A stretch of 64,000 nt of DNA from Gammaproteobacteria bacterium (GTDB lineage Bacteria > Pseudomonadota > Gammaproteobacteria > Eutrophobiales > Eutrophobiaceae). The DNA is taken from positions 192,001 through 256,000 of the forward strand of contig CAXMWX010000001.1 in the NCBI GenBank assembly GCA_963422205.2. Direction: 5' to 3'. Positions 7,349-17,999 of this stretch are shown one piece after another. A program made the translations under genes and the position numbers. The notes under the pieces were generated by a model that worked only from the letters and a program-made list of their open reading frames with translations, did not search any database and was not told the origin of the DNA. Position 1 is the stretch's first letter, and every line of letters begins with the position of its first letter.

Positions 7349-7625
7349 GTCGCCTAAAGCAAAGACATGGTTCTGAAGAGATAACAGAAATTTTTCGTAT
7401 TTTTGCCTGAAAATATTTTGCATCGGAAGGTGATGGCTTTGCTTTTTGTTGGTCAAGCGGTTTTATCTTCCTCCTTCCGTTATTCATGGGTTGCCCATGG
7501 CGTTCTATGTGTTCCATTCGGGGCAGTGGGTTGTCTTTTGGCTGGCGAGTAGAATAGCAGATATAATCGAAAATGCGCCTTTGGCAGATAAGGTCATCGC
7601 ACCAATTAAGATAAAGAAAATACCT

Positions 7626-9335
7626 ATGGCTAACAAACAACAGAAATCGGACTTGCGAGGGAAAGAGCCGCTCGCAAAACAGCTTTGGAGGGCGGCAGAT
7701 AAGCTCAGAAAGAACATCGATGCCGCAGAGTACAAGCACGTTGTTCTGGGGTTAATGTTCCTGCGTTATATCTCCGATGCCTTTGAAGCGCTCTATCAAC
7801 AGCTCAAAGCAGGCGAAGGCGAATATGCCGGCGCCGACCCGGAAGACAAAGACGAATACAAGGCGGAAAATGTCTTTTTTGTGCCAAAGGAATCGCGCTG
7901 GCGTCACCTGCTCAACGAAGCGAAGAAACCCACCATTGGCAAGCGCATTGATGAGGCCATGGATGCCATCGAAAAGGAAAACCCTGCCTTGTTGAAAGGG
8001 GTGCTGCCGAAAGTCTATGCCCGCCAAAACCTGGATCCGGTCAGTCTTGGCGAATTGCTCGACCTGATCGCCAATATCGCCTTGGGCGATACCAAACAGC
8101 AAAGCGCCGATGTGCTCGGCCATGTGTTTGAGTATTTCCTCGGCGAATTTGCCCTGGCAGAAGGCAAGAAAGGCGGGCAATTCTACACGCCAGCAAGTGT
8201 CGTAGGCTTATTGGTGGCAATGCTGGAACCCTATCAGGGCCGCGTGTTTGATCCCTGCTGTGGTTCGGGCGGTATGTTTGTGCAGTCGGAAAAGTTCGTC
8301 CTGGAGCATCAGGGAAGAATCAATGACATTTCCATCTACGGACAGGAAAGCAACCAGACCACCTGGCGGCTGGCGAAAATGAACCTCGCCATACGCGGCA
8401 TCGACAGCTCACAGGTAAAATGGAACAATGAGGGCTCATTTCTCAACGATGCCCACAAAGACGTCAAAGTCGATACCATCATCGCCAATCCGCCGTTTAA
8501 CGACAGCGACTGGAGCGGTGATGTATTGCGTAAAGACGGGCGCTGGCAGTTCGGTGTACCGCCACAAGGCAACGCCAACTATGCCTGGATTCAGCACTTC
8601 CTGTACCACCTCGCCCCCGGCGGACAAGCGGGTTTTGTGCTGGCAAAAGGGGCCTTGACCTCCAAATCCTCCGGGGAGTGGGAGATACGCAAAAACCTGA
8701 TTGAAGCCGACCTGATCGACTGCATCGTCAACCTGCCCGCCAAACTGTTCCTCAATACGCAGATCCCCGCCTGCCTTTGGTTTATGCGAAGGAATAGAAA
8801 CCACCCCGCCCTAAAGGGCACCCCTCCATCGGAGGGGAATGTACCGCCTCGCCTTTCAGGCACCCCGCCAATGGAGGGGAATGTACCACCCCGCCTTTCA
8901 GGCACCCCGCCACCGGAGGGGAATCGAAGCAAGGAGATTCTTTTTATTGATGCCAGAAACCTCGGCCACCTCATCAACAGACGCACCAGGGAATTTTCAA
9001 AAGCAGACATTCAAACGATTGCCGACACCTACCACAACTGGCGCCATTCCCCTCCCTCGGAGGGGTGGCAGCCGTCAGAGACGGCTGACGGGGCGGTTCA
9101 TGAGGGCAACTACGAAGACATCCCCGGCTTTTGCAATTCCGCTTCCATTGAGCGAGTCAAAGCGCTCGATTACGTCCTCACGCCGGGGCGCTATGTGGGG
9201 CTGGCCGGGGAAGACGATGACTTTGATTTTGCCGAACGATTCGCCCAACTCAAAGCCGAGTTTGCAACACAATTAAAAGAAGAAAGCAGGCTCAATGAGA
9301 TTATTGTTGCCAACCTGGATAAAATGAAACCATGA
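7626..9335 (+). CDS. hsdM: Type I RM methyltransferase subunit (N6-adenine)
   Basis: [24 protein letters not shown] (motif I), NPPF (motif IV), [10 protein letters not shown]; start taken at ATG 7626. Confidence 0.96.
8799..8924. repeat. Three tandem 42-bp palindromic units inside hsdM, in frame
   Basis: Units 8799-8840, 8841-8882, 8883-8924 each end CCCC(T/G)CC-N3-GGAGGGGAAT; they encode [14 protein letters not shown] / [14 protein letters not shown] / [14 protein letters not shown]. Confidence 0.92.
9046..9098. repeat. Same palindromic element, opposite orientation, inside hsdM
   Basis: attcccctcc-ctc-ggaggggtg-g-cagccgtc-aga-gacggctg-acggggcggtt. Confidence 0.88.
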
Positions 9336-9754
9336 ACATAGACACACAATTTCTCGCCCGTTGCCTTGCCGCATTGGAAAAAGCCATGCAGCAGCTACCA
9401 CAGTTTACCGAAGCCGACATTGAATACGACATCTACCGGGCGGCCATTGTCAAAGAGTTTGAGATTGCGCTGGAACAAAGTGGCAAGCTGTTAAAAAAAC
9501 GCCTGCAACCCTTTTTTCACACCCACAAAGCGGCGGACAGGCTTCACTTCAAAGACATCTTCCGTCAGGCCGGGCAACACGGGCTGCTGGACATAGACGA
9601 GGTGGAACGCTGGCTGGCATACCGCGACAACCGAAACGCCACCGCCCATGATTATGGCGCGGCGCTGGCGCAACAAACCCTGCCGCTGATGCCGCAATTT
9701 ATCACCGATGCCAAAAAACTGGTCAGCATACTGCAAGCCAACCATGATCATTAG
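9332..9754 (+). CDS. HEPN-domain protein (HI0074-like nucleotidyltransferase substrate-binding family), putative RNase toxin 1
   Basis: AIVKEFE, KDIFR, Rx4H motif RNATAH followed by DY; ATGA overlap with hsdM stop. Confidence 0.88.
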
Positions 9755-10070
9755 AGCAAAAGACCGGCAACGCATACAGCGCATCGCGGGCGAGGTATTC
9801 ACCGCACCATTGGAAATATGGGCCTATGGCAGCCGGGTCACACACCGGGCGCACCCATGCAGCGATTTGGATCTGGTCATCCGCACCGAAAGCCTGAGGC
9901 CGGTGGATAGGGGGCAGTTGCTGACGTTTACAGAGTTGCTGCAAGAATCCAACATCCCGTTTATTGTGCAGGTATTCGACTGGGCAGAGCTGCCCGACTC
10001 TTTTCGGCAAAACATCCTGAACCATTACCAGGTATTTTTTTCTTCCCTGCCGGAAAAGCACAGTGTATGA
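9744..10070 (+). CDS. Minimal nucleotidyltransferase (MNT), putative antitoxin 1
   Basis: GS-x10-DxD motif ([15 protein letters not shown]); overlaps HEPN gene end. Confidence 0.88.
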
Positions 10071-10288
10071 GCGGAGAGGTGCAAAAAATTGTATCAGGTA
10101 GAGACGCAACATTTTGCGTCTCTACAATGGTCACAAATTGCGACCGGTTCGATTCTTTGAGGTCACAATCTGTCACCTCAAAAGGGCGCGGGGGAAGACG
10201 ATATCTTCCCTATGCCTTCACCGAGCAGGGCATAGCCATGCTTTCAGCCGTGTTGCGTAGCGAGACGGCCATCACCAAAGCCATGTAA
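10067..10288 (+). pseudogene. ORF6N-family DNA-binding protein remnant
   Basis: [39 protein letters not shown] is the conserved ORF6N segment; N-terminal part absent, a REP palindrome lies there. Confidence 0.75.
10098..10125. repeat. GTAG-type REP palindrome
   Basis: gtagagacgcaa-catt-ttgcgtctctac, perfect 12-bp arms. Confidence 0.9.
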
Positions 10289-10308
10289 CATAAAGAACCT
10301 TATAAATT

Positions 10309-10716
10309 ATGAACAACGACAACCGATGGAAGCAACGCTTTCAAAACTTTGAAAAATCTTACCGGGTATTGCTGCGAAGGGTAGAAGAATATCAAACAGA
10401 CCCCAATTCAGAAGCCTACCAAATGGCACTGATCCAGGGGTTTGAAATACTACAGGAACTCAGTTGGAAAACCTTAAAAGACTATCTGGAAAATGAAGGG
10501 GTGCCGGTAAAACCCAATCCCAAAGACACTATTAGAAACGCTTTTCAAAATGAACTTGTTGCCCATCCCGAAGCCTGGATAAAAAGCATAGAAAACCGCC
10601 ACCGCACCAGCCACACGTACAATGAGAAAATATTACATGAAACCGTACATTACATTGCTGAAGATTTTTATCCCATTGTGCGCGACCTGTATGATCAATT
10701 AAAAGCCAGGCTATGA
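10309..10716 (+). CDS. HEPN-domain protein (HI0074-like), putative RNase toxin 2
   Basis: RWKQRFQNF, ALIQGFE...ELSWKTLKDYL, Rx4H motif RHRTSH followed by TY. Confidence 0.9.
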   Translation: MNNDNRWKQRFQNFEKSYRVLLRRVEEYQTDPNSEAYQMALIQGFEILQELSWKTLKDYLENEGVPVKPNPKDTIRNAFQNELVAHPEAWIKSIENRHRTSHTYNEKILHETVHYIAEDFYPIVRDLYDQLKARL

Positions 10717-12167
10717 AATACGGTCTGTCCGCTCAGCAACTACAGGAAATCACCGGCATTCTCGCCGCGTATGAGGAAGTAGAAACCGCCGTGCTGTTTG
10801 GCTCACGGGCCATAGACACCTACAAAGAAGCCTCCGATGTTGATATTGCCATCAAGGGCGAAAAGGCCGACTTTGGGCTTGCCCTAAGCATAAAAGACCA
10901 CCTCGAAGAAGAAACCTACCTGCCCTTTTTCTTTGATGTTATTTCCTATCAAAGCATTAGCAATGAGGAACTGAAAAAACATATCCGCACCAAAGGCAAA
11001 GTGATGTATCGGAAAAGCATGAAAGAATGGCGGGAAATACGATTAGAAAGGTATATCAAAACCAATAAAAAAAGTATTGGTATGGATTTTCCGTATCAAG
11101 AAATATTATATCTGGATACAGGTTCAATAACGAAAAACAAAATTGATAAATTACAAGAATTTTCATTAACGAATGCGCCCAGTCGAGCAAAAAGAATAGT
11201 TGAAGAGGAGGATATTATCTATTCGTCGGTAAGACCTAATCAGCTTCATTATGGTTTCATTAAAAACCCAAAAGATAATCTGGTAGTCTCTACAGGCTTC
11301 GTTGTTATTTCTTGTGATAAAGAATTTCTTGAACCAAAATACTTATACTATTTTCTCGCATCTGAAAATTCTACTGAATATTTACATTCAATAGCGGAAG
11401 CCTCAACCTCAGCATATCCTTCTTTAAAGCCAAGGGATATTGAAACTTTAGAAATCCTACTCCCACCCCTGCCCGAACAAAAAGCCATCGCCTCTGTCCT
11501 TTCCAGCCTGGATGACAAAATCGACCTGCTCCACCGCCAAAACCAAACCCTCGAACAACTGGCAGAAACCCTCTTCCGACAGTGGTTTGTGGAAGAAGCG
11601 GATGAGGGATGGGGGGAAGGTTGTTTAGGAGATGTTATTGAAATATTTGATAGTAAAAGAATACCTCTTTCAAAAATGCAAAGGCTCGAAATGAAGATTG
11701 GAAAGATGTATCCCTATTATGGAGCAGCCAAAATAATGGATTATGTGAATGATTTCATTTTTGATGGTGAATACATACTATTTGCTGAAGACGGAACTGT
11801 AAAAACTGATGAAGGTTATCCTGTTCTTCAATATGCAACAGGTCAATTTTGGGTCAACAATCATACCCATATTTTGAGAGCCAAAAAGCCTTATTCCAAC
11901 TTCTTCATTTGGTGTTATTTGGTTAAAAAAAATATTGAAAAATATATCACTGGGGCAGTCCAACCCAAAATAAACCAGTCCAATCTTAAGTCCATCGATT
12001 TTCCAAAGTTTCCAGGAGACTTAGTAGAAAATTGGAATGTTGAAACTGAGCCGATATTTGGCAAGATAAATCAAAATAAAACTCAGATAAAAACCATAAC
12101 CAACCTAAGAGACACCCTGTTGCCCAAACTCATGAGCGGCGAAGTGCGGGTGGAAATGGAAAATTAA
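10713..12167 (+). CDS. hsdS: MNT nucleotidyltransferase fused to type I RM specificity subunit
   Basis: Residues 1-102: LFGSRAIDTYKEASDVD (GSx10DxD). From internal Met at 11019: two TRDs, central LPPLPEQKAIASVLSSLDDKIDL, C-terminal LRDTLLPKLMSGEVRV. No stop between the two parts. Confidence 0.92.
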   Translation: MKYGLSAQQLQEITGILAAYEEVETAVLFGSRAIDTYKEASDVDIAIKGEKADFGLALSIKDHLEEETYLPFFFDVISYQSISNEELKKHIRTKGKVMYRKSMKEWREIRLERYIKTNKKSIGMDFPYQEILYLDTGSITKNKIDKLQEFSLTNAPSRAKRIVEEEDIIYSSVRPNQLHYGFIKNPKDNLVVSTGFVVISCDKEFLEPKYLYYFLASENSTEYLHSIAEASTSAYPSLKPRDIETLEILLPPLPEQKAIASVLSSLDDKIDLLHRQNQTLEQLAETLFRQWFVEEADEGWGEGCLGDVIEIFDSKRIPLSKMQRLEMKIGKMYPYYGAAKIMDYVNDFIFDGEYILFAEDGTVKTDEGYPVLQYATGQFWVNNHTHILRAKKPYSNFFIWCYLVKKNIEKYITGAVQPKINQSNLKSIDFPKFPGDLVENWNVETEPIFGKINQNKTQIKTITNLRDTLLPKLMSGEVRVEMEN

Positions 12168-12752
12168 ATGATTAGGAAAATAGAACTTTTCTTTTTATCA
12201 CTTTGGTTATTGTTTGTATTGATTATCATCATTACGGCAAAAATTCCTTTTTGCTTTTCAGAAGTTTGTGGGTTTGTTGGATTCGAATATCTCATTTTGA
12301 ATAATATCATCTCTCTGTTATGCATAATCTCATTAATTATTGGGGCTGTTGCTTATTTTGATTTCATTTATCAGATGAAGGGATCGCCCGAGTTATCTTT
12401 TAAGATAACTAAAATTGAAAAGATTGATTATGAACATTTGATCTTTCTTACGACATATATAATACCATTGGTATGCTTCAAATTTGAATCACTTAGATAC
12501 CAGATAGTGTTTTTTTTGATAATTGTGGTGATTGGAATAATTTATGTCAGAACTGACCTCTTTTATGCAAATCCAATACTGGCAATGCTTCAATTTCGAA
12601 TCTACAAAGTGGATGGAGAATTTAGAAATAATGAAACACGTGAAGCTAGAATATTAATTTCCAAAGAAAAACTAAGTAAAGAAGATAATGTCAAGTACTT
12701 GAAACTTGATGACCGAATATATTATGCATTTAGAGTAAAGAAAAATGACTAA
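12168..12752 (+). CDS. kwaA: Kiwa anti-phage membrane protein KwaA
   Basis: About four TM segments, FLTTYIIPL and LFYANPILA motifs, directly upstream of a KwaB-like gene; AT-rich. Confidence 0.8.
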   Translation: MIRKIELFFLSLWLLFVLIIIITAKIPFCFSEVCGFVGFEYLILNNIISLLCIISLIIGAVAYFDFIYQMKGSPELSFKITKIEKIDYEHLIFLTTYIIPLVCFKFESLRYQIVFFLIIVVIGIIYVRTDLFYANPILAMLQFRIYKVDGEFRNNETREARILISKEKLSKEDNVKYLKLDDRIYYAFRVKKND

Positions 12753-13728
12753 AGAAGAACTTAACCAGGCACTTCAGTTTATCAATAACCCACAAGGTGA
12801 ATTACAGATAATCTTATATACATTATTTAAGAATGGAGGAGATATAAAGAAAATAGATATACGAGTAGATGATCTTCCACAAATCCGTGAAATATTTATT
12901 CAGGGCATAAAGTCTTATGTTGTGGAAAAAGATGATCATGTTGTCCTGCCACTTTCTACAGCCGATGAAAGAGTGAACTGTTTTTATACCTATGACCTTG
13001 AATTGCCAGATGAACTGACATATTTAGAAAGTGTTATTGGCAATGATGATTTAGACAACTTTAACTTTCAAGATGATCAGTTATCTGAAATTGATGCACT
13101 TATTGTAATCCTCGCTGATAATGATTTTGAAATTTCTTTATTCAAAAAATTAACACCGGTAGAAGTAGTAGGCAGAGGTGGATATATGTTATGGAAATCA
13201 AATGAGAGATTTGAGCGATTTGATGAACAGCTATTGCGAATTACTCCTCGATTTCAAGTAATTCGAGTAAATAATGAGGTAGTCATTATTGATTTAAATA
13301 CAATAGAGAAAAGCCTTGGGTTCCATGATGTAATCACTAGGGAGGCTAGTGCAAGCCTTGATGTTATTAGACAAATGGAAATTGTAAGTAATATTGAGAG
13401 TTTAGAAGAACTGGTTACGGATGTCAGTTTTGCAAGAAAGTTAACAAGAGTGGCGAAAAATTCACCTGTCATTCAGAATAACATACCAAATACAGATATT
13501 ATCGCCTTTTCAAAAAGGTATCCCATTACAAGAAATAAGATGAGATATAATGAAGATGAAAGTCAATTTAATTTGGATACACGTGTTTCTAAAGACTTAT
13601 TTATCAAAATACTGAATGATGACCTCCTTACTTCAGAACTGACAAGGCTATATTATGACAGTCTGGCTAAAGATGGTGTTGGAATTGAAAATGTAGATGA
13701 AAACCAAGATGCTGATAATACCCTATGA
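12745..13728 (+). CDS. kwaB: Kiwa anti-phage protein KwaB (DUF4868-like)
   Basis: 327-aa acidic protein with LSTADER, FARKL, FIKILNDDLLTSELT...YDSLAK; paired with kwaA. Confidence 0.8.
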   Translation: MTKEELNQALQFINNPQGELQIILYTLFKNGGDIKKIDIRVDDLPQIREIFIQGIKSYVVEKDDHVVLPLSTADERVNCFYTYDLELPDELTYLESVIGNDDLDNFNFQDDQLSEIDALIVILADNDFEISLFKKLTPVEVVGRGGYMLWKSNERFERFDEQLLRITPRFQVIRVNNEVVIIDLNTIEKSLGFHDVITREASASLDVIRQMEIVSNIESLEELVTDVSFARKLTRVAKNSPVIQNNIPNTDIIAFSKRYPITRNKMRYNEDESQFNLDTRVSKDLFIKILNDDLLTSELTRLYYDSLAKDGVGIENVDENQDADNTL

Positions 13729-13808: not shown

Positions 13809-13841
13809 AAGGTTGGGCTGATGAGCGGTTGGGGTGATGTG

Positions 13842-13888
13842 GTAGAGACGCAAAATTTTGCATCTCTACAGGATATTTCGTCTCTACG
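13842..13888. repeat. GTAG-type REP palindrome plus partial copy upstream of RAYT
   Basis: gtagagacgcaa-aatt-ttgcatctctac followed by aggatatttcgtctctac. Confidence 0.88.
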
Positions 13889-14070
13889 GGGGTATCGGAT
13901 ATTCATAATACATTGCACCAGAAACCCAAAAAAACAAAATAATGACCGGCCTTTACAAAAACAAATACCGCATCGCCTCTGCCCGCCACCCGGCTTGGAA
14001 TTATGGATGGAACGCTGCGTATTTTGTGACGATCTGTACCAAAGACCGGGTATGTTGGTTTGGGCAAATC

Positions 14071-14152
14071 GTAGAGACGCAAGATTTTGCGTCTCTACAG
14101 GATCTTGCGTCTCTACAAAATGTTGCGTCTCCACAGGGTATTGCACCTCTAC
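14071..14152. repeat. REP palindrome plus three tandem 18-bp half-copies inside RAYT, in frame
   Basis: 14071-14098 palindrome; 14099-14116, 14117-14134, 14135-14152 decaying copies; encodes VETQDFASLQDLASLQNVASPQGIAPL. Confidence 0.9.
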
Positions 14153-14337
14153 CACATGAACCACAAATGAAATTATCAGAAATGGGTGAAATCGCCCACC
14201 AATGCTGGTTGGAAATACCACAACATTTTCCGTTTGTGAAATTGGGAAATCACATTATCATGCCCAATCATGTACACGGCATTGTGATCATTGATAAACC
14301 GGATGATGGATTCGGTGAAAACCATGATTTACACAAC

Positions 14338-14383
14338 GTAGAGACGCAAAATCTTGCGTCTCTACAGGATGTTGCGTCTCTAC
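14338..14383. repeat. REP palindrome plus one 18-bp half-copy inside RAYT, in frame
   Basis: gtagagacgcaa-aatc-ttgcgtctctac-aggatgttgcgtctctac. Confidence 0.9.
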
Positions 14384-14627
14384 CGTCCAAACCATCAGAA
14401 ACCAACAAACCTAAAAACCAATTTGGCCCGCAATCCAAAAACCTGGCATCCATCATCCGCGGGTTCAAAACAGGGATCACCAAAAATGCCAGACGCATTG
14501 CCCCGGAATTTGCCTGGCAACCCCGATACCATGACCATATCATCCGAAATGAAAAATCCTATTATCATATTTCAGAATACATTGTGAATAATCCCCCGAA
14601 ATGGACAGAAGATGAATTCTATGCCCC

Positions 14628-17600
14628 ATGACCCGCTTAACTGAATCCGCCATCGAAAATTTCGCCATTGAACTGTTTGAACACTTGGGCTACCAGTACC
14701 TCTACGGCCCGGACATTGCCCCATTCCCCTCCTCTGGAGGGGTGGATTTCATCGAAGATGGAAGACGAGGTGGTGCAGACACTCGCGAAAGCTACAGCCA
14801 AGTCCTGCTCCTCAATCGCCTGCGAGAGGCCATTGCCAGAATCAACCCCGGCATTGCCCATGACACCCGGCAGGAGGCCATCAAGGAAATTCAGCGCCTG
14901 CATTCCCCGGCATTATTGACCAACAATGAGGCTTTTCATCGTCTGCTTACCGAAAGCATTCAGGTGACGTATCAAAAAGACGGTCAGCAAAGGGGCGATT
15001 TGGTCTGGCTGATTGATTTTGAAAACCCAGGCAACAATGATTTTGTCGTCACCAATCAATACACCATCATAGAAGATGGCAACAACAAACGCCCCGACAT
15101 AATATTGTTCATCAACGGTATCCCGTTGGTGGTTGTCGAGCTTAAAAACGCCGCCGATGAAACTGCAACTGTAGAGTCAGCATTCGACCAAATAGAAACC
15201 TACAAAGCCACCATTCCAAGCCTGTTTACTTACAATGCGTTTTCCATCATTTCCGATGGTCTGGAAGCCAAAGCCGGAACCGTATCTTCTGAAATCAGTC
15301 GCTTCATGGCATGGAAATCTGTGGACGGCAAAAAAGAAGCCTCTCATCGGGTCAGTCAGCTGGAGACCTTGATCCACGGCATGTTGAACAAGGAAACCCT
15401 GATTGATGTGATCAGGCATTTCATTGTCTTTGAGAAGTCCAGAAAGGAGGACGCTGAATCGGGGCAGATCACCATCAACAGCATAAAAAAACTGGCCGCC
15501 TATCATCAATACTACGCCGTGAATCGCGCCATTGACTCAACCCTGCGAGCGACAGGGTACAGGTTAGAAAGAAAGACACCTGTAAGCAGCGTACAGGAAT
15601 CACCGGAGAGTTACGGTGTGCCGGGGGTAAAGTCACAGCCATCGGGCGATAGAAAAGGCGGAGTCGTCTGGCATACGCAGGGAAGTGGAAAGTCGCTTTC
15701 CATGGTCTTTTATGCAGGCAAAATCGTGCAGGCCCTCCATAACCCCACAGTCGTCATGATTACAGACAGAAACGACCTGGACGATCAGCTGTTCGATACC
15801 TTTGCCGCCTCCGCGCAATTACTCAGGCAGGAACCCAAACAGGCCGCCGACCGCAATGATCTCAAGGCAAAACTGAAAGTCGCTTCAGGGGGTATTGTTT
15901 TCACCACCATTCAGAAATTCCAACCAGAAGAAGGCCATAGTTACGAGACGCTTTCAGCGCGAGACAACATTGTGGTCATCGCCGATGAAGCCCACCGCAC
16001 CCAATACGGCTTCAAGGCAAAACATGTCGATGCCAGGGACGCAAGCGGCCATGTCATGGGGACGAAAACCCGCTATGGTTTTGCCAAGTACATGCGTGAT
16101 GCCTTGCCCCATGCCACTTATCTTGGCTTTACCGGCACACCGATTGAAAATGCCGATGTCAACACGCCGGCCGTTTTCGGAAATTATATTGATGTCTATG
16201 ACGTAGCCCAGGCCGTGGAAGATGGCGCTACCGTTCCCATCTATTATGAAAGCCGCCTGGCCAAGGTCAATCTCAGTGATGAGGGCAAACAGTTGGTGGC
16301 AGAGCTTGAAGAGGAACTGGAACAGGAAGAGCTAACCGAAACCCAAAAGGTCAAAGCCAAGTGGACGCAATTAGAAGCGCTTATAGGCAGTGAAAATCGC
16401 CTTGCCACGGTAGCAAAAGACATGGTTCAGCATTTTGAGCAGCGACAGGAAGTCTTTACCGGCAAGGGCATGATTGTGACCATGTCCAGACGCATCGCCG
16501 CAGACCTCTATGCAGAAATCATCCAGCTCAAACCCGAATGGCATTCAGATGATCTCGACAAGGGTGCGATTAAAGTGGTGATGACTTCCTCATCATCCGA
16601 TGGCCCCAAGATGGCAAAACACCATTCCACCAAGCAGCAACGCAGGACTCTGGCAGAGCGCATGAAAGACCCGGACAATGCACTGAAGCTGGTTATTGTT
16701 CGGGACATGTGGCTGACCGGTTTTGATGTGCCCATGATGCACACGCTCTACATCGATAAACCCATGCAAGGCCACAACCTGATGCAGGCTATAGCGCGGG
16801 TGAACCGGGTCTATCAAGACAAGCCCGGTGGCTTGGTCGTGGATTATCTCGGCATTGCCTCGGACTTAAAGCAAGCGCTGTCCTTCTATGCCGATGCCGG
16901 CGGCAAAGGCGACCCGGCCATAGCACAGGAACAGGCCCTGTCCTTGATGCTGGAAAAACTAGAAGTCGTATCTCAGATGTACAATGAATGCCCCTCCCGT
17001 GCAGGAGTACCCGAAGGACGGGGCGGTAAATTCCCCTCCTCTGGAGGGGTGGATTTCATCGCAGATGAAAGACGGGGTGGTTTCGCTTACCAAAATTACT
17101 TTGATGCAAACACCTCAGAAAAGCTATCCATCATCCTGGCAGCAGCAGAACATATTTTAGGGCTGGAAGACGGGAAGAAAAGGTACATCAACCAGGTGAC
17201 TGCCTTGTCAAAAGCCTTTGCCATCGCTATCCCGCACGAGCAGGCCATGCAGGTGAAAGAGGAGGTTGGCTTCTTTCAAGCGGTAAAAGCCAGACTGGCC
17301 AAGTTTGATTCGAGCGAACCAGCAACCGGCTTAGGCAGAACGGATAAGGCCATAGAGACGACTATCCGTCAGGTGGTGGACAACGCCCTGGTCTCCGAAA
17401 AAGTGGTGGATGTATTCGATGCCGCAGGGATCAAAAAGCCCGACATCTCTATTCTTTCAGAGGATTTCTTAATGGAATTGAAAGGCATGGAACACAAGAA
17501 TGTGGCGCTGGAGGTGCTGAAAAAGCTGCTCAATGACGAGATAAAAAGTCGCGCCAAAAAGAATCTGGTCAAGAGCAAATCATTGTTGGAGATGCTTGAG

Positions 17601-17999
17601 AACTCGATCAAAAAATATCAAAACAACATTCTCACCGCCGCAGAGGTCATAGACGAACTCATCAAACTGAGCAAAGACATTGTCAATATGGACAGTGAAG
17701 CCCGGCAACTTGGCCTGTCAGATTTCGAGTACGCTTTCTACACCGCCGTGGCCGACAATGACAGCGCCAGGGAGCTGATGGCAAAAGACAAACTGCGCGA
17801 GCTTGCTGCCATTCTCACCGAAAAAGTAAAACAAAATGCCTCGATAGACTGGGCGATTAAAGACAGTGCCAAAGCAAAACTGAAGGTGATTATCAAAAGA
17901 ACCCTGCGCCAATATGGCTATCCGCCGGATATGCAAAAGCTCGCCACTGAAACCGTACTGAAACAGGCCGAGATGATTGCAGATGAGTTGGCAGCGTAA
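14628..17999 (+). CDS. hsdR: Type I RM restriction subunit
   Basis: RPDIILFINGIPLVVVELK nuclease motif, HTQGSGKS Walker A, DEAH, FTGTP, MWLTGFD, QAIARVNR, C-terminal YGYPPD. Confidence 0.97.
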   Translation: MTRLTESAIENFAIELFEHLGYQYLYGPDIAPFPSSGGVDFIEDGRRGGADTRESYSQVLLLNRLREAIARINPGIAHDTRQEAIKEIQRLHSPALLTNNEAFHRLLTESIQVTYQKDGQQRGDLVWLIDFENPGNNDFVVTNQYTIIEDGNNKRPDIILFINGIPLVVVELKNAADETATVESAFDQIETYKATIPSLFTYNAFSIISDGLEAKAGTVSSEISRFMAWKSVDGKKEASHRVSQLETLIHGMLNKETLIDVIRHFIVFEKSRKEDAESGQITINSIKKLAAYHQYYAVNRAIDSTLRATGYRLERKTPVSSVQESPESYGVPGVKSQPSGDRKGGVVWHTQGSGKSLSMVFYAGKIVQALHNPTVVMITDRNDLDDQLFDTFAASAQLLRQEPKQAADRNDLKAKLKVASGGIVFTTIQKFQPEEGHSYETLSARDNIVVIADEAHRTQYGFKAKHVDARDASGHVMGTKTRYGFAKYMRDALPHATYLGFTGTPIENADVNTPAVFGNYIDVYDVAQAVEDGATVPIYYESRLAKVNLSDEGKQLVAELEEELEQEELTETQKVKAKWTQLEALIGSENRLATVAKDMVQHFEQRQEVFTGKGMIVTMSRRIAADLYAEIIQLKPEWHSDDLDKGAIKVVMTSSSSDGPKMAKHHSTKQQRRTLAERMKDPDNALKLVIVRDMWLTGFDVPMMHTLYIDKPMQGHNLMQAIARVNRVYQDKPGGLVVDYLGIASDLKQALSFYADAGGKGDPAIAQEQALSLMLEKLEVVSQMYNECPSRAGVPEGRGGKFPSSGGVDFIADERRGGFAYQNYFDANTSEKLSIILAAAEHILGLEDGKKRYINQVTALSKAFAIAIPHEQAMQVKEEVGFFQAVKARLAKFDSSEPATGLGRTDKAIETTIRQVVDNALVSEKVVDVFDAAGIKKPDISILSEDFLMELKGMEHKNVALEVLKKLLNDEIKSRAKKNLVKSKSLLEMLENSIKKYQNNILTAAEVIDELIKLSKDIVNMDSEARQLGLSDFEYAFYTAVADNDSARELMAKDKLRELAAILTEKVKQNASIDWAIKDSAKAKLKVIIKRTLRQYGYPPDMQKLATETVLKQAEMIADELAA
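14723..14774. repeat. CCCCTCC/GGAGGGG palindromic element inside hsdR, in frame
   Basis: attcccctcc-tct-ggaggggtggatttcatcgaagatggaagacgaggtggt; encodes FPSSGGVDFIEDGRRGG. Confidence 0.88.
16988..17082. repeat. Two tandem copies (one degenerate) of the same element inside hsdR, in frame
   Basis: 16988-17028 degenerate (CPSRAGVPEGRGG); 17030-17082 nearly identical to the 14723 copy (FPSSGGVDFIADERRGG). Confidence 0.88.

Follow-up and report, generated by a model that had tools for sequence, protein, structure and literature searches.

In a 64,000-nucleotide (nt) stretch of a gammaproteobacterial genome from the family Eutrophobiaceae (assembly GCA_963422205.2, contig CAXMWX010000001.1, positions 192,001 to 256,000; the whole stretch is called the window below), a predicted HEPN-MNT toxin-antitoxin pair lies between the hsdM and hsdR genes of a type I restriction-modification (RM) locus, and its antitoxin domain is joined to the specificity subunit HsdS in a single protein. 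The best explanation we can offer is a type VII pair of the kind characterised in Legionella that has been built into the RM system, with the fusion (written MNT::HsdS) favoured by selection for its coupling of the toxin to the restriction complex. We give this explanation as a whole, selected coupling included, a probability of about 0.45. Its parts are of unequal strength. The fusion protein is very probably real and functional, and the HEPN protein and the MNT domain probably work as toxin and antitoxin, judging by their homologues. Selection for coupling, with guard and addiction roles counted together, is a tentative proposal. Three features on the forward strand carry the argument; TRD stands for target recognition domain and aa for amino acids.

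10309-10716, plus strand: HEPN2, predicted RNase toxin, 135 aa, matched by PF08780, by TIGR01987 and, in phmmer, by 8xdj_A/8xem.
10713-11018, plus strand: MNT domain, predicted AMP-transferase antitoxin, residues 1-102 of the fusion, with G30-S31-x10-D42-x-D44 and no alpha4 helix.
11019-12167, plus strand: HsdS part, residues 103-484 of the fusion, with TRD1, a central conserved helix (about 11460-11620), TRD2 and a C-terminal conserved helix.

HEPN2 matches PF08780 (NTase_sub_bind) with an E-value of 2e-33 in a profile search, and its score against the TIGR01987 (HI0074) model is 77 bits, above the cut-off of 55.8. The closest characterised sequence found by phmmer is the Legionella HEPN toxin (8xdj_A/8xem, E 6.8e-21). 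With residues numbered from the alignment with this homologue, the HEPN2 motif NRHRTSHTYNE reads R97-x4-H102-x-Y104 (Rx4HxY), and the alignment places Q43, E46, R97, H102 and Y104, all the key residues of the homologue, in HEPN2 as well. Across 28 aligned HEPN sequences, R97, H102 and Y104 are invariant and E46 is nearly so. An earlier note on this DNA had taken the Rx4H motif and its neighbouring tyrosine as the mark of the toxin; the motif is present, but the RNase site does not lie there in the Legionella pneumophila HEPN, a Mg2+-dependent RNase whose active site is reported as Q44/E47 and not RX4H (PMC11586414). By homology, HEPN2 is a putative Mg2+-dependent RNase toxin, with Q43/E46 as its predicted metal site and Y104 as its predicted AMPylation site. 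The profile scans gave no ABC-ATPase domain in HEPN2, where only PF08780 exceeded its curated cut-off and a glypican match remained sub-threshold (E 0.006, 15.9 bits against 26.4). PADLOC matched HEPN2 to 0 families and gave it no defence-system name. The toxin gene comes first of the two adjacent and co-oriented genes, and in the four letters ATGA its TGA stop (10714-10716) overlaps the start codon (ATG at 10713) of the next open reading frame (ORF), so that HEPN2 and MNT::HsdS are translationally coupled.

The overlapping ORF (10713-12167, 484 aa) comprises a complete MNT domain (residues 1-102) followed by a complete two-TRD HsdS with no stop between them. An intact MNT is the N-terminal domain of an intact HsdS, joined to it by a linker of few residues (0-5 in the window). 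Residues 11-102 match PF18765 (Polbeta, E 6.9e-15) and PF01909, and phmmer links the domain to the Legionella MNT (8xeh_E/8xeo_A, E 1e-11). The GSx10DxD motif is intact as G30-S31-x10-D42-V43-D44, and its four named residues G30, S31, D42 and D44 are invariant among 9 aligned MNT relatives. The HsdS part matches PF01420 (Methylase_S) in two stretches (E 3.2e-29), and residues 103-484 align end to end, at 68-74% identity, with unfused HsdS proteins of 380-382 aa (P0002, P0003, P0006 and P0012). Met-1 of these unfused proteins aligns with M103, encoded by ATG 11019, the codon that the earlier note had named as the usual HsdS start; the other parts of the anatomy it described, namely the HEPN with Rx4H and tyrosine, the ATGA overlap, the MNT and the two-TRD HsdS, are likewise found where it had placed them. 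An AlphaFold2 model of the fusion protein, built with 77 sequences, has a mean pLDDT of 91.6 and a pTM of 0.74, and its only dip in pLDDT, to 72, is at the junction block 101-110. Helices are modelled at 253-294 and 435-475, as in the conserved helical regions of HsdS. Foldseek aligned residues ~1-101 with the MNT antitoxin 8xeo_B (template modelling score, TM, on target 0.94; root-mean-square deviation 1.3) and the C-terminal part with solved HsdS chains (5ybb_D, E 8e-21; 3okg; 1yf2; 2y7c_A).

The fusion recurs widely in databases. A search of 1.84 billion cluster representatives with the 102-aa MNT domain as query gave 2321 matches at E 1e-3 or better; counts by identity band refer to the best 150 of these 2321. 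At least 55% identity was reached by 58 of the 150, and at least 42 of the 58 are fused: 35 are at least 400 aa long with a match to HsdS, and 7 are shorter with such a match. A further 11 are longer than 125 aa and gave no BLAST match to this particular HsdS, most of them visibly continuing into other TRDs, and only 5 are of 125 aa or less. Below 55% identity the pattern reverses, and 62 of the 92 representatives listed are no longer than 125 aa. PF18765 and PF01420 occur together in 116 of the 120 best matches of a word-indexed search that covered longer proteins only. MNT and HsdS are combined in 19 other proteins among the 120 best full-length matches, with differing TRDs and three MNT subtypes, and 6 of 30 matches in the ESM Atlas are clusters of 50-73 members with the same architecture. 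Fused proteins come from Gammaproteobacteria (including symbionts), Desulfobacteraceae, Nitrospirota, Desantisbacteria, Melioribacteraceae and Firmicutes, and from Cloacimonadales too. By these sequence comparisons, most members of a large MNT clade that spans several phyla exist as MNT::HsdS. Two proteins in the collection are of other kinds: in P0138 an MNT is joined to a tail that matches the HsdM C-terminus, and in P0151 an MNT is joined to the HsdS N-terminus and then to the HsdR C-terminus. Both may be deletion chimeras.

The gene context is conserved too. We compared 61 loci with a gene for an MNT relative, of which species genomes supplied 12 and metagenome contigs 49 (locus numbers are given with the prefix L). 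MNT and HsdS share one ORF in 30 of them, complete in 23, running off the contig end in 5 and cut short in 2 (157 and 162 aa); L027 and L028 share a junction and are probably one element from two samples, so that the 30 do not amount to 30 independent lineages. A HEPN2 homologue lies directly upstream in all 30, in agreement with the earlier note's suggestion that MNT-HsdS architectures might keep an upstream HEPN, and in 28 of the 29 extracted cases the HEPN ORF overlaps the MNT start by 4 nt. hsdM lies upstream in each of the 19 fused loci that have at least 2200 nt of upstream sequence. The operon type hsdM - HEPN - MNT::hsdS (- hsdR) is, on this comparison, widespread and conserved. Within the fused loci, the HEPN keeps Q43 in 25 of 29, E46 in 28 of 29, R97 in 28 of 29 and both H102 and Y104 in 29 of 29. 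GSx10DxD is present in 30 of 30, and was lost only in two broken, unfused copies. As the retention of these catalytic and key residues shows, purifying selection acts on both HEPN and MNT in the fused loci.

We built a tree of 169 MNT domains by a quick maximum-likelihood search (109 columns, rows under 85 aa dropped, 34 rows of ambiguous length left unlabelled); it has many unresolved forks and three long branches. On this tree the label fused or stand-alone changes at least 17 times, and the well-supported branches by themselves force at least 7 changes; shuffled labels average 45 changes, and none of 500 shuffles was as low as 17. The group that contains the MNT of the window has 67 rows, of which 42 are fused, 6 are stand-alone and 19 are unlabelled fragments. 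The tree supports more than one change between the fused and stand-alone states, and fixes neither the number of origins nor their direction. In a large MNT clade the fused state appears to be ancestral and has been kept while the HsdS TRDs vary.

The same genome holds a second HEPN-MNT::HsdS locus about 240 kb away, outside the window (L065; C3:434000-452000).

L065:7579-7938: HEPN, PF08780 E 5e-37.
L065:7935-9653: MNT::HsdS, 572 aa, overlapping the HEPN gene by 4 nt.

The gene order there is hsdR (EcoR124 type), a YhcG/DUF1016 nuclease, HEPN, MNT::HsdS, GmrSD and hsdM. The L065 MNT is 36% identical to that of the window, and the L065 HsdS carries repeat-derived peptide insertions.

In part of the family the fusion is the only possible source of the specificity subunit. 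We scanned the 30 fused loci for in-frame ATG, GTG or TTG codons between MNT residue 96 and the conserved HsdS tryptophan. There was no candidate start in 9 of the 30 (e.g., L004, L006 and L007), 15 had only GTG or TTG, and 6 had an ATG. At least in the 9 loci that have no in-frame start, the specificity subunit must be the fusion protein itself. Linker length across the fused proteins ranges from 0 to ~45 residues. In the window, both products, the fusion and an HsdS initiated at ATG 11019, may be made.

On the reading that we prefer, the MNT domain would neutralise HEPN2 by AMPylating Tyr104, acting, by homology, as a monomer and probably on a HEPN tetramer. A monomeric MNT without alpha4 would be compatible with a large C-terminal fusion partner. 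With one HsdS per M2S1 or R2M2S1 complex, each complex would carry one copy of the antitoxin enzyme, and freshly produced toxin would then be neutralised only as long as HsdS kept being synthesised, stayed stable and, possibly, held a suitable conformation. The pair would serve the restriction system as a fail-safe, its RNase firing when the supply or function of HsdS is cut. Possible triggers include host shut-off, loss of the locus, proteolysis, and anti-restriction proteins or DNA mimics such as Ocr and ArdA. AMPylation would stop, the RNase would be released, and growth arrest or abortive infection would follow. In its strongest form, the restriction complex itself would be both antitoxin and guard, with a HEPN RNase tetramer docked on the MNT borne by HsdS; taken separately, we consider this form rather unlikely. 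The earlier note had proposed a guard in which the state of the M/S/R complex governs release of the toxin; such a guard is plausible and is put forward as a proposal only.

Complex prediction with four HEPN2 copies and fusion residues 1-300 gave a score of 0.43, and the best of 3 controls scored 0.00; the runs agreed in at least 75% of contacts, with a partner pLDDT of at least 79. The mark applied is reached by 58 of 80 solved complexes and by 2 of 110 mismatched pairs, although at scores of 0.60 or less it is reached by only 7 of those 80 and by both of the passing mismatches. The pass may also reflect likeness only, because a like complex (8XEH) is solved. The predicted HEPN2-MNT complex lends weak support to the pairing.

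Several points, including the weakness of that support, weigh against the coupled pair as we read it. Toxicity and AMPylation are predicted from homologues rather than from experiment, and the link to restriction is a proposal. The HepT_toxin equivalog NF047751 gave no match to HEPN2 in the NCBIfam scan, and the fusion MNT scored 45 bits against MntA_antitoxin NF047752, under the cut-off of 60. A covalent AMP mark persists, and blocking or losing the MNT affects only newly made toxin. We know of no allosteric path from the DNA-binding cleft to the MNT. ATG 11019, as the start codon of unfused relatives, could also yield an unfused HsdS in the window. In-frame repeats in hsdM and hsdR (described below) leave this particular RM system a putative one as regards activity. 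Additionally, the same data can be accounted for by addiction or by a neutral fusion.

The alternative that survives best is that the fusion has no regulatory meaning: an autonomous, selfish HEPN-MNT pair lodged between hsdM and hsdS, and the gap or overlap between mnt and hsdS was then lost. Such a fusion would be tolerated, given an MNT monomer with a free C-terminus and an HsdS with a free N-terminus. A gene fusion is hard to reverse and so can persist neutrally, re-splitting requiring a new stop, a new start and a new ribosome site. Related pairs do occur without any restriction genes (L009-L011), and annotated plasmids contribute 85 records, all of them stand-alone pairs under 60% identity and 77 of them from Piscirickettsia; no fused MNT::HsdS was among the 15 plasmid matches listed of those 85 records. 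Unfused MNTs also occur in hsdM...hsdS contexts (L058-L061). Furthermore, the MNT outlasts its partner: it is retained where HsdS is cut off (L005, 157 aa; L032, 162 aa), L008, L041 and L049 have MNT genes ending a few residues into the HsdS N-terminus, and in L002 an unfused MNT is followed by a remnant of the central HsdS helix. The last four look like decayed fusions, and the MNT kept in truncated loci points to selection on the antitoxin, not demonstrably on the fusion. The variable linker length fits a neutral origin as well. Nevertheless, neutrality sits poorly with the large majority that fused forms hold in a deep clade, by the counts given above, across several phyla and many different TRDs. 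It also has to accommodate a state that was gained or lost on 7 or more occasions along well-supported branches and that is found twice in one genome with unrelated MNTs, and it leaves unexplained why this toxin-antitoxin class is so often sited beside hsdS. We consider a neutral fusion unlikely, while treating it as the chief competitor of selected coupling.

A second alternative keeps selection and removes phage sensing. Type I restriction systems are not self-addictive, and the pair could protect a horizontally transferred hsdM-hsdS core from loss or silencing, through post-segregational growth arrest. The patchy distribution resembles that of a transferred element: the MNT was found, at E 1e-8 or better, in none of 1 same-genus and 23 same-family genomes and in 3 of 16 same-class genomes. 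Because the MNT was not found in these 24 same-genus and same-family genomes, no near neighbour with a stop codon is available to date the fusion. The locus is a mosaic of imported pieces of low guanine-cytosine (GC) content with REP/RAYT elements, related stand-alone pairs reside on plasmids, and a toxin gene that comes first and is translationally coupled would suit such a role. In contrast, toxin already AMPylated should remain inactive once the genes are lost, barring de-AMPylation or turnover, the truncated forms indicate that the HsdS part is not protected by the fusion, and the role would hinge on the stability of the two proteins. Addiction as the sole role appears improbable.

The HEPN and MNT could also form a two-subunit nucleotidyltransferase that acts on HsdM, HsdR, DNA ends or a phage protein, with no toxin-antitoxin function. 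The family names of PF08780 ('nucleotidyltransferase substrate binding protein') and TIGR01987 reflect this older proposal, and residues for nucleotide transfer are kept in both partners. A pure adaptor, however, would not need the RNase metal-site residues, which are conserved as tabulated above (Q43 25/29, E46 28/29), and the closest characterised homologue is reported to be toxic, to cleave rRNA and to be itself an AMPylation substrate (PMC11586414). We regard this as a very improbable account of the pair.

An artefact, whether an assembly error or a stop codon lost once in this genome, has practically no claim left and was rejected: the junction is covered without differences, the same continuous ORF occurs in dozens of independent assemblies, and the only oddity found is a contig break at 11453-11501. 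The coverage comes from Logan contigs of two runs of one study, which span 10250-11488 with 0 other letters and 0 gaps and so contain no stop near 11000-11020, where the earlier note had asked for confirmation. These are contigs and not raw reads, possibly from the window's own source sample, and they serve as a consistency check, not independent proof. No RNA data set was among the sequencing runs listed for this DNA. Recurrence of the fusion in many other assemblies is the stronger argument that an artefact is unlikely, and it settles the worry that a single stop loss lay behind the ORF (fused proteins make up 116 of the best 120 longer relatives and, among the 58 representatives with 55% identity or more, at least 42). 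The break, shared by both runs, falls within the central conserved HsdS region, far from the junction. A short contig with different upstream sequence joins at 11453, with a depth of 137 against 561 in run X1. When a second copy of the central conserved HsdS region was sought in the assembled genome, only the window's own was found. The alternative sequence at 11453 could come from another strain or another organism, or could be an alternative TRD1.

The surrounding restriction locus runs in the order hsdM, HEPN1, MNT1, ORF6N fragment, HEPN2, MNT::HsdS, kwaA/kwaB, REP palindromes with a RAYT-like ORF, and hsdR.

7623-9335, plus strand: hsdM, type I methyltransferase subunit; PF02384 N6_Mtase E 4.4e-102, PF12161 HsdM_N E 6.2e-26; the frame is also open from TTG 7446.
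9332-9754, plus strand: HEPN1, first HI0074-family HEPN; PF08780 E 9e-20, TIGR01987 57.9 bits against a cut-off of 55.8.
9708-10070, plus strand: MNT1, stand-alone MNT nucleotidyltransferase paired with HEPN1; PF18765 E 4.2e-08.
10067-10288, plus strand: ORF6N-domain gene fragment; PF10543 E 4.4e-09, covering only profile positions 50-86 of 86; PADLOC PDC-S05.
12168-12752, plus strand: kwaA (Kiwa); NF041622 KwaA 228 bits, cut-off 100.
12745-13728, plus strand: kwaB (Kiwa); NF041623 KwaB 363 bits, cut-off 200; PF16162.
13841-14631, plus strand: REP-like palindromes and a RAYT-like ORF (13942-14631); repeat families D1/D3, inverted pairs I1-I7.
14628-17999, plus strand: hsdR, type I restriction subunit; TIGR00348 hsdR 597.8 bits.

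Two HEPN-MNT pairs stand in tandem ahead of hsdS, HEPN1-MNT1 directly after hsdM and then HEPN2-MNT::HsdS. The HEPN1 start overlaps the hsdM stop and its motif RNATAHDY is again Rx4HxY, while the true start of MNT1 is probably an internal ATG near 9744. In the tree, MNT1 groups with the HsdS-fused MNTs P0091 and P0106 of other organisms (SH-aLRT 98, on a long branch). The PADLOC 'Specificity_I' profile PDLC03138 (485 positions) aligns to the MNT and TRD1 of the fusion (residues 12-294) and also matches the stand-alone MNT1; it may mislabel stand-alone MNT antitoxins as S subunits.

A complete Kiwa pair is inserted between hsdS and hsdR, with a GC content of ~0.30 against ~0.5 in hsdM/hsdR. By finer measurement, GC is ~0.5-0.6 in hsdM/hsdR, 0.43-0.51 in HEPN2 and the MNT (MNT part ~0.46-0.51), 0.32-0.35 in both TRDs (0.32 in TRD1) and 0.29-0.32 in Kiwa, and these differences among parts indicate that the locus is a mosaic with several inserted elements. 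A REP-like palindrome of 28-30 nt occurs at 10097-10126, 13841-13870, 14070-14099 and 14337-14366. The first copy (repeat family D3) falls within the ORF6N fragment, between MNT1 and HEPN2, and the other three lie in and around the RAYT-like ORF, so that the copies bracket the HEPN2-MNT::HsdS-Kiwa stretch; the ORF itself scores 46.5 bits against NF047646 REP_Tyr_transpos, under the cut-off of 80. A peptide of this kind, VETQNLASLQ, stands at the end of the fused HsdS P0043, which belongs to another genome. Another family of palindromic repeats lies in frame within hsdM (8817-8924 and 9045-9097) and hsdR (14722-14774 and 17030-17081; D2). It has a 23-nt core, forms three 42-nt tandem units in hsdM, and adds Pro/Gly-rich peptides while the ORFs stay open.

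At least six bacterial groups named in source records carry this family, in which HsdS includes the antitoxin of a type VII pair as one of its domains. Source names, where given, read only 'restriction endonuclease subunit S', and under that label the toxin-antitoxin content of such loci is invisible in annotation. To our knowledge, few restriction-locus toxins are understood, and none has a silencing component that is covalently part of the restriction enzyme. If the guard reading is true, the family would be a widespread, multi-phylum guard like PrrC or Ronin built from a type VII pair, and would hold the first antitoxin that is covalently part of an immune effector. The idea of immunity-suicide coupling becomes directly testable in this family. 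If the fusion is neutral, it would still be a clean example of toxin-antitoxin modules becoming fixed inside defence operons.

The MNT::HsdS architecture sits in databases unremarked. Full-text literature searches, which covered openly available main texts, found no description of an MNT-HsdS fusion, and the earlier note likewise knew of no characterised one. Term look-up in the main texts of PMC3710099, PMC2701414, PMC3632139, PMC12707154, PMC12839542 and PMC4621449 gave no mention of it either. The survey of HEPN proteins reports clustering with restriction operons and HEPN fusions to MNT and methylase domains (PMC3710099), and the terms 'HsdS' and 'specificity subunit' are absent from its main text. 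The supplements of that survey (Additional file 1), of PMC12839542 and of the Ronin preprint list architectures or neighbourhoods and might include the fusion. According to the available text of the paper on immunity-suicide coupling, immunity loci carry toxins but apparently no antitoxins (PMC3632139).

Among known systems, sequence and fold comparison identifies the Legionella HEPN-MNT type VII pair as the closest characterised relative (8XEM, 8XDJ, 8XEH, 8XEO; Jin et al. 2024). The Legionella MNT is described as monomeric and, unlike other MntA proteins, as having no C-terminal alpha4 helix; it contacts a HEPN tetramer, in a 1:4 ratio, with its alpha2 helix and the alpha2-beta3 loop, and it (poly)AMPylates HEPN Y105 (PMC11586414). 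Like the pair in the window, the Legionella pair has a HEPN of the PF08780/HI0074 class in which the Q/E Mg2+ site, RX4HXY and the position of the AMPylated tyrosine are conserved, and an MNT with GSX10DXD, no alpha4 and the same fold (TM on target 0.92-0.94). The two MNTs are 28-29% identical in the Foldseek alignment, and the HEPNs were compared by E-value only. The Legionella MNT, however, is a free 108-aa monomer, whereas that of the window runs into a full HsdS, and only the window pair sits inside a type I operon, with hsdM on one side and hsdR on the other.

HepT/MntA of Shewanella oneidensis and Aphanizomenon flos-aquae resemble the predicted pair in principle, since their MNT neutralises a HEPN RNase by (oligo)AMPylating the RX4HXY tyrosine (PMC7641770). 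Unlike HEPN2, their HepT is of the DUF86/PF01934 class, and their MntA proteins carry a C-terminal alpha4 needed for binding (PMC11586414), which the MNT of the window does not have. The HepT/MntA folds 7ae9_G, 6m6u_A and 7bxo_E are also weaker matches to this MNT (TM on target 0.51-0.63). The gene order differs as well: MNT-HEPN dyads usually have the MNT first (PMC3710099), and here the HEPN is first. Our pair shows a HEPN with RX4HXY, an MNT with GSX10DXD and adjacent, co-oriented genes, and falls below the NCBIfam equivalog cut-offs. HEPN2 is best placed as a relative of the Legionella/HI0074 class and not among the named equivalogs, because it passed the HI0074 model while the HepT/MntA cut-offs were missed. 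The type VII link drawn in the earlier note holds for the HEPN, the MNT and the tyrosine next to Rx4H, the predicted AMPylation site, but the nearest relative is of the Legionella type rather than the HepT/MntA of Shewanella and Aphanizomenon that it had invoked. Fused MNT-HEPN single-chain systems join the MNT to its own toxin (NAR 2026, PMC13000451); in the window it is joined to HsdS and the toxin is separate.

PrrC and Ronin are textbook second lines of defence, which fire once a phage has disabled the first line. Both systems show that a type I complex can keep a linked toxin silenced up to the arrival of anti-restriction proteins (PMC12707154; bioRxiv 10.1101/2023.04.06.535777). PrrC/EcoprrI, like the window, has a HEPN-superfamily RNase encoded inside a type I locus (type IC), and the restriction complex keeps PrrC silent until its own inhibition by a phage sets PrrC free (PMC12707154, PMC3632139). 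In contrast, the available text of those papers describes PrrC as having an ABC-ATPase N-domain and being held by protein contact, with no antitoxin enzyme, AMPylation or HsdS fusion. HEPN2, having no ABC domain, is not a member of PrrC/RloC but may work like PrrC. In Ronin (RonA with an HsdMS decoy), HsdM/HsdS suppresses a linked toxin, and ArdA, Ocr and Aop1 trigger death (bioRxiv 10.1101/2023.04.06.535777). As the available preprint text has it, Ronin uses a 61-aa membrane-peptide toxin, has no hsdR and relies on non-covalent, non-enzymatic suppression, whereas the window has hsdR, a predicted RNase and an enzymatic antitoxin. The locus does not belong to Ronin: hsdR is present, and the only membrane protein seen in it is KwaA, with no dedicated search made for RonA. 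The HsdS is of ordinary type I kind, with two TRDs and conserved helical regions and with hsdM and hsdR, both ORFs open, in the same locus. A type VII-like pair with its toxin embedded in a type I locus is a variant that combines known kinds, rather than a new category.

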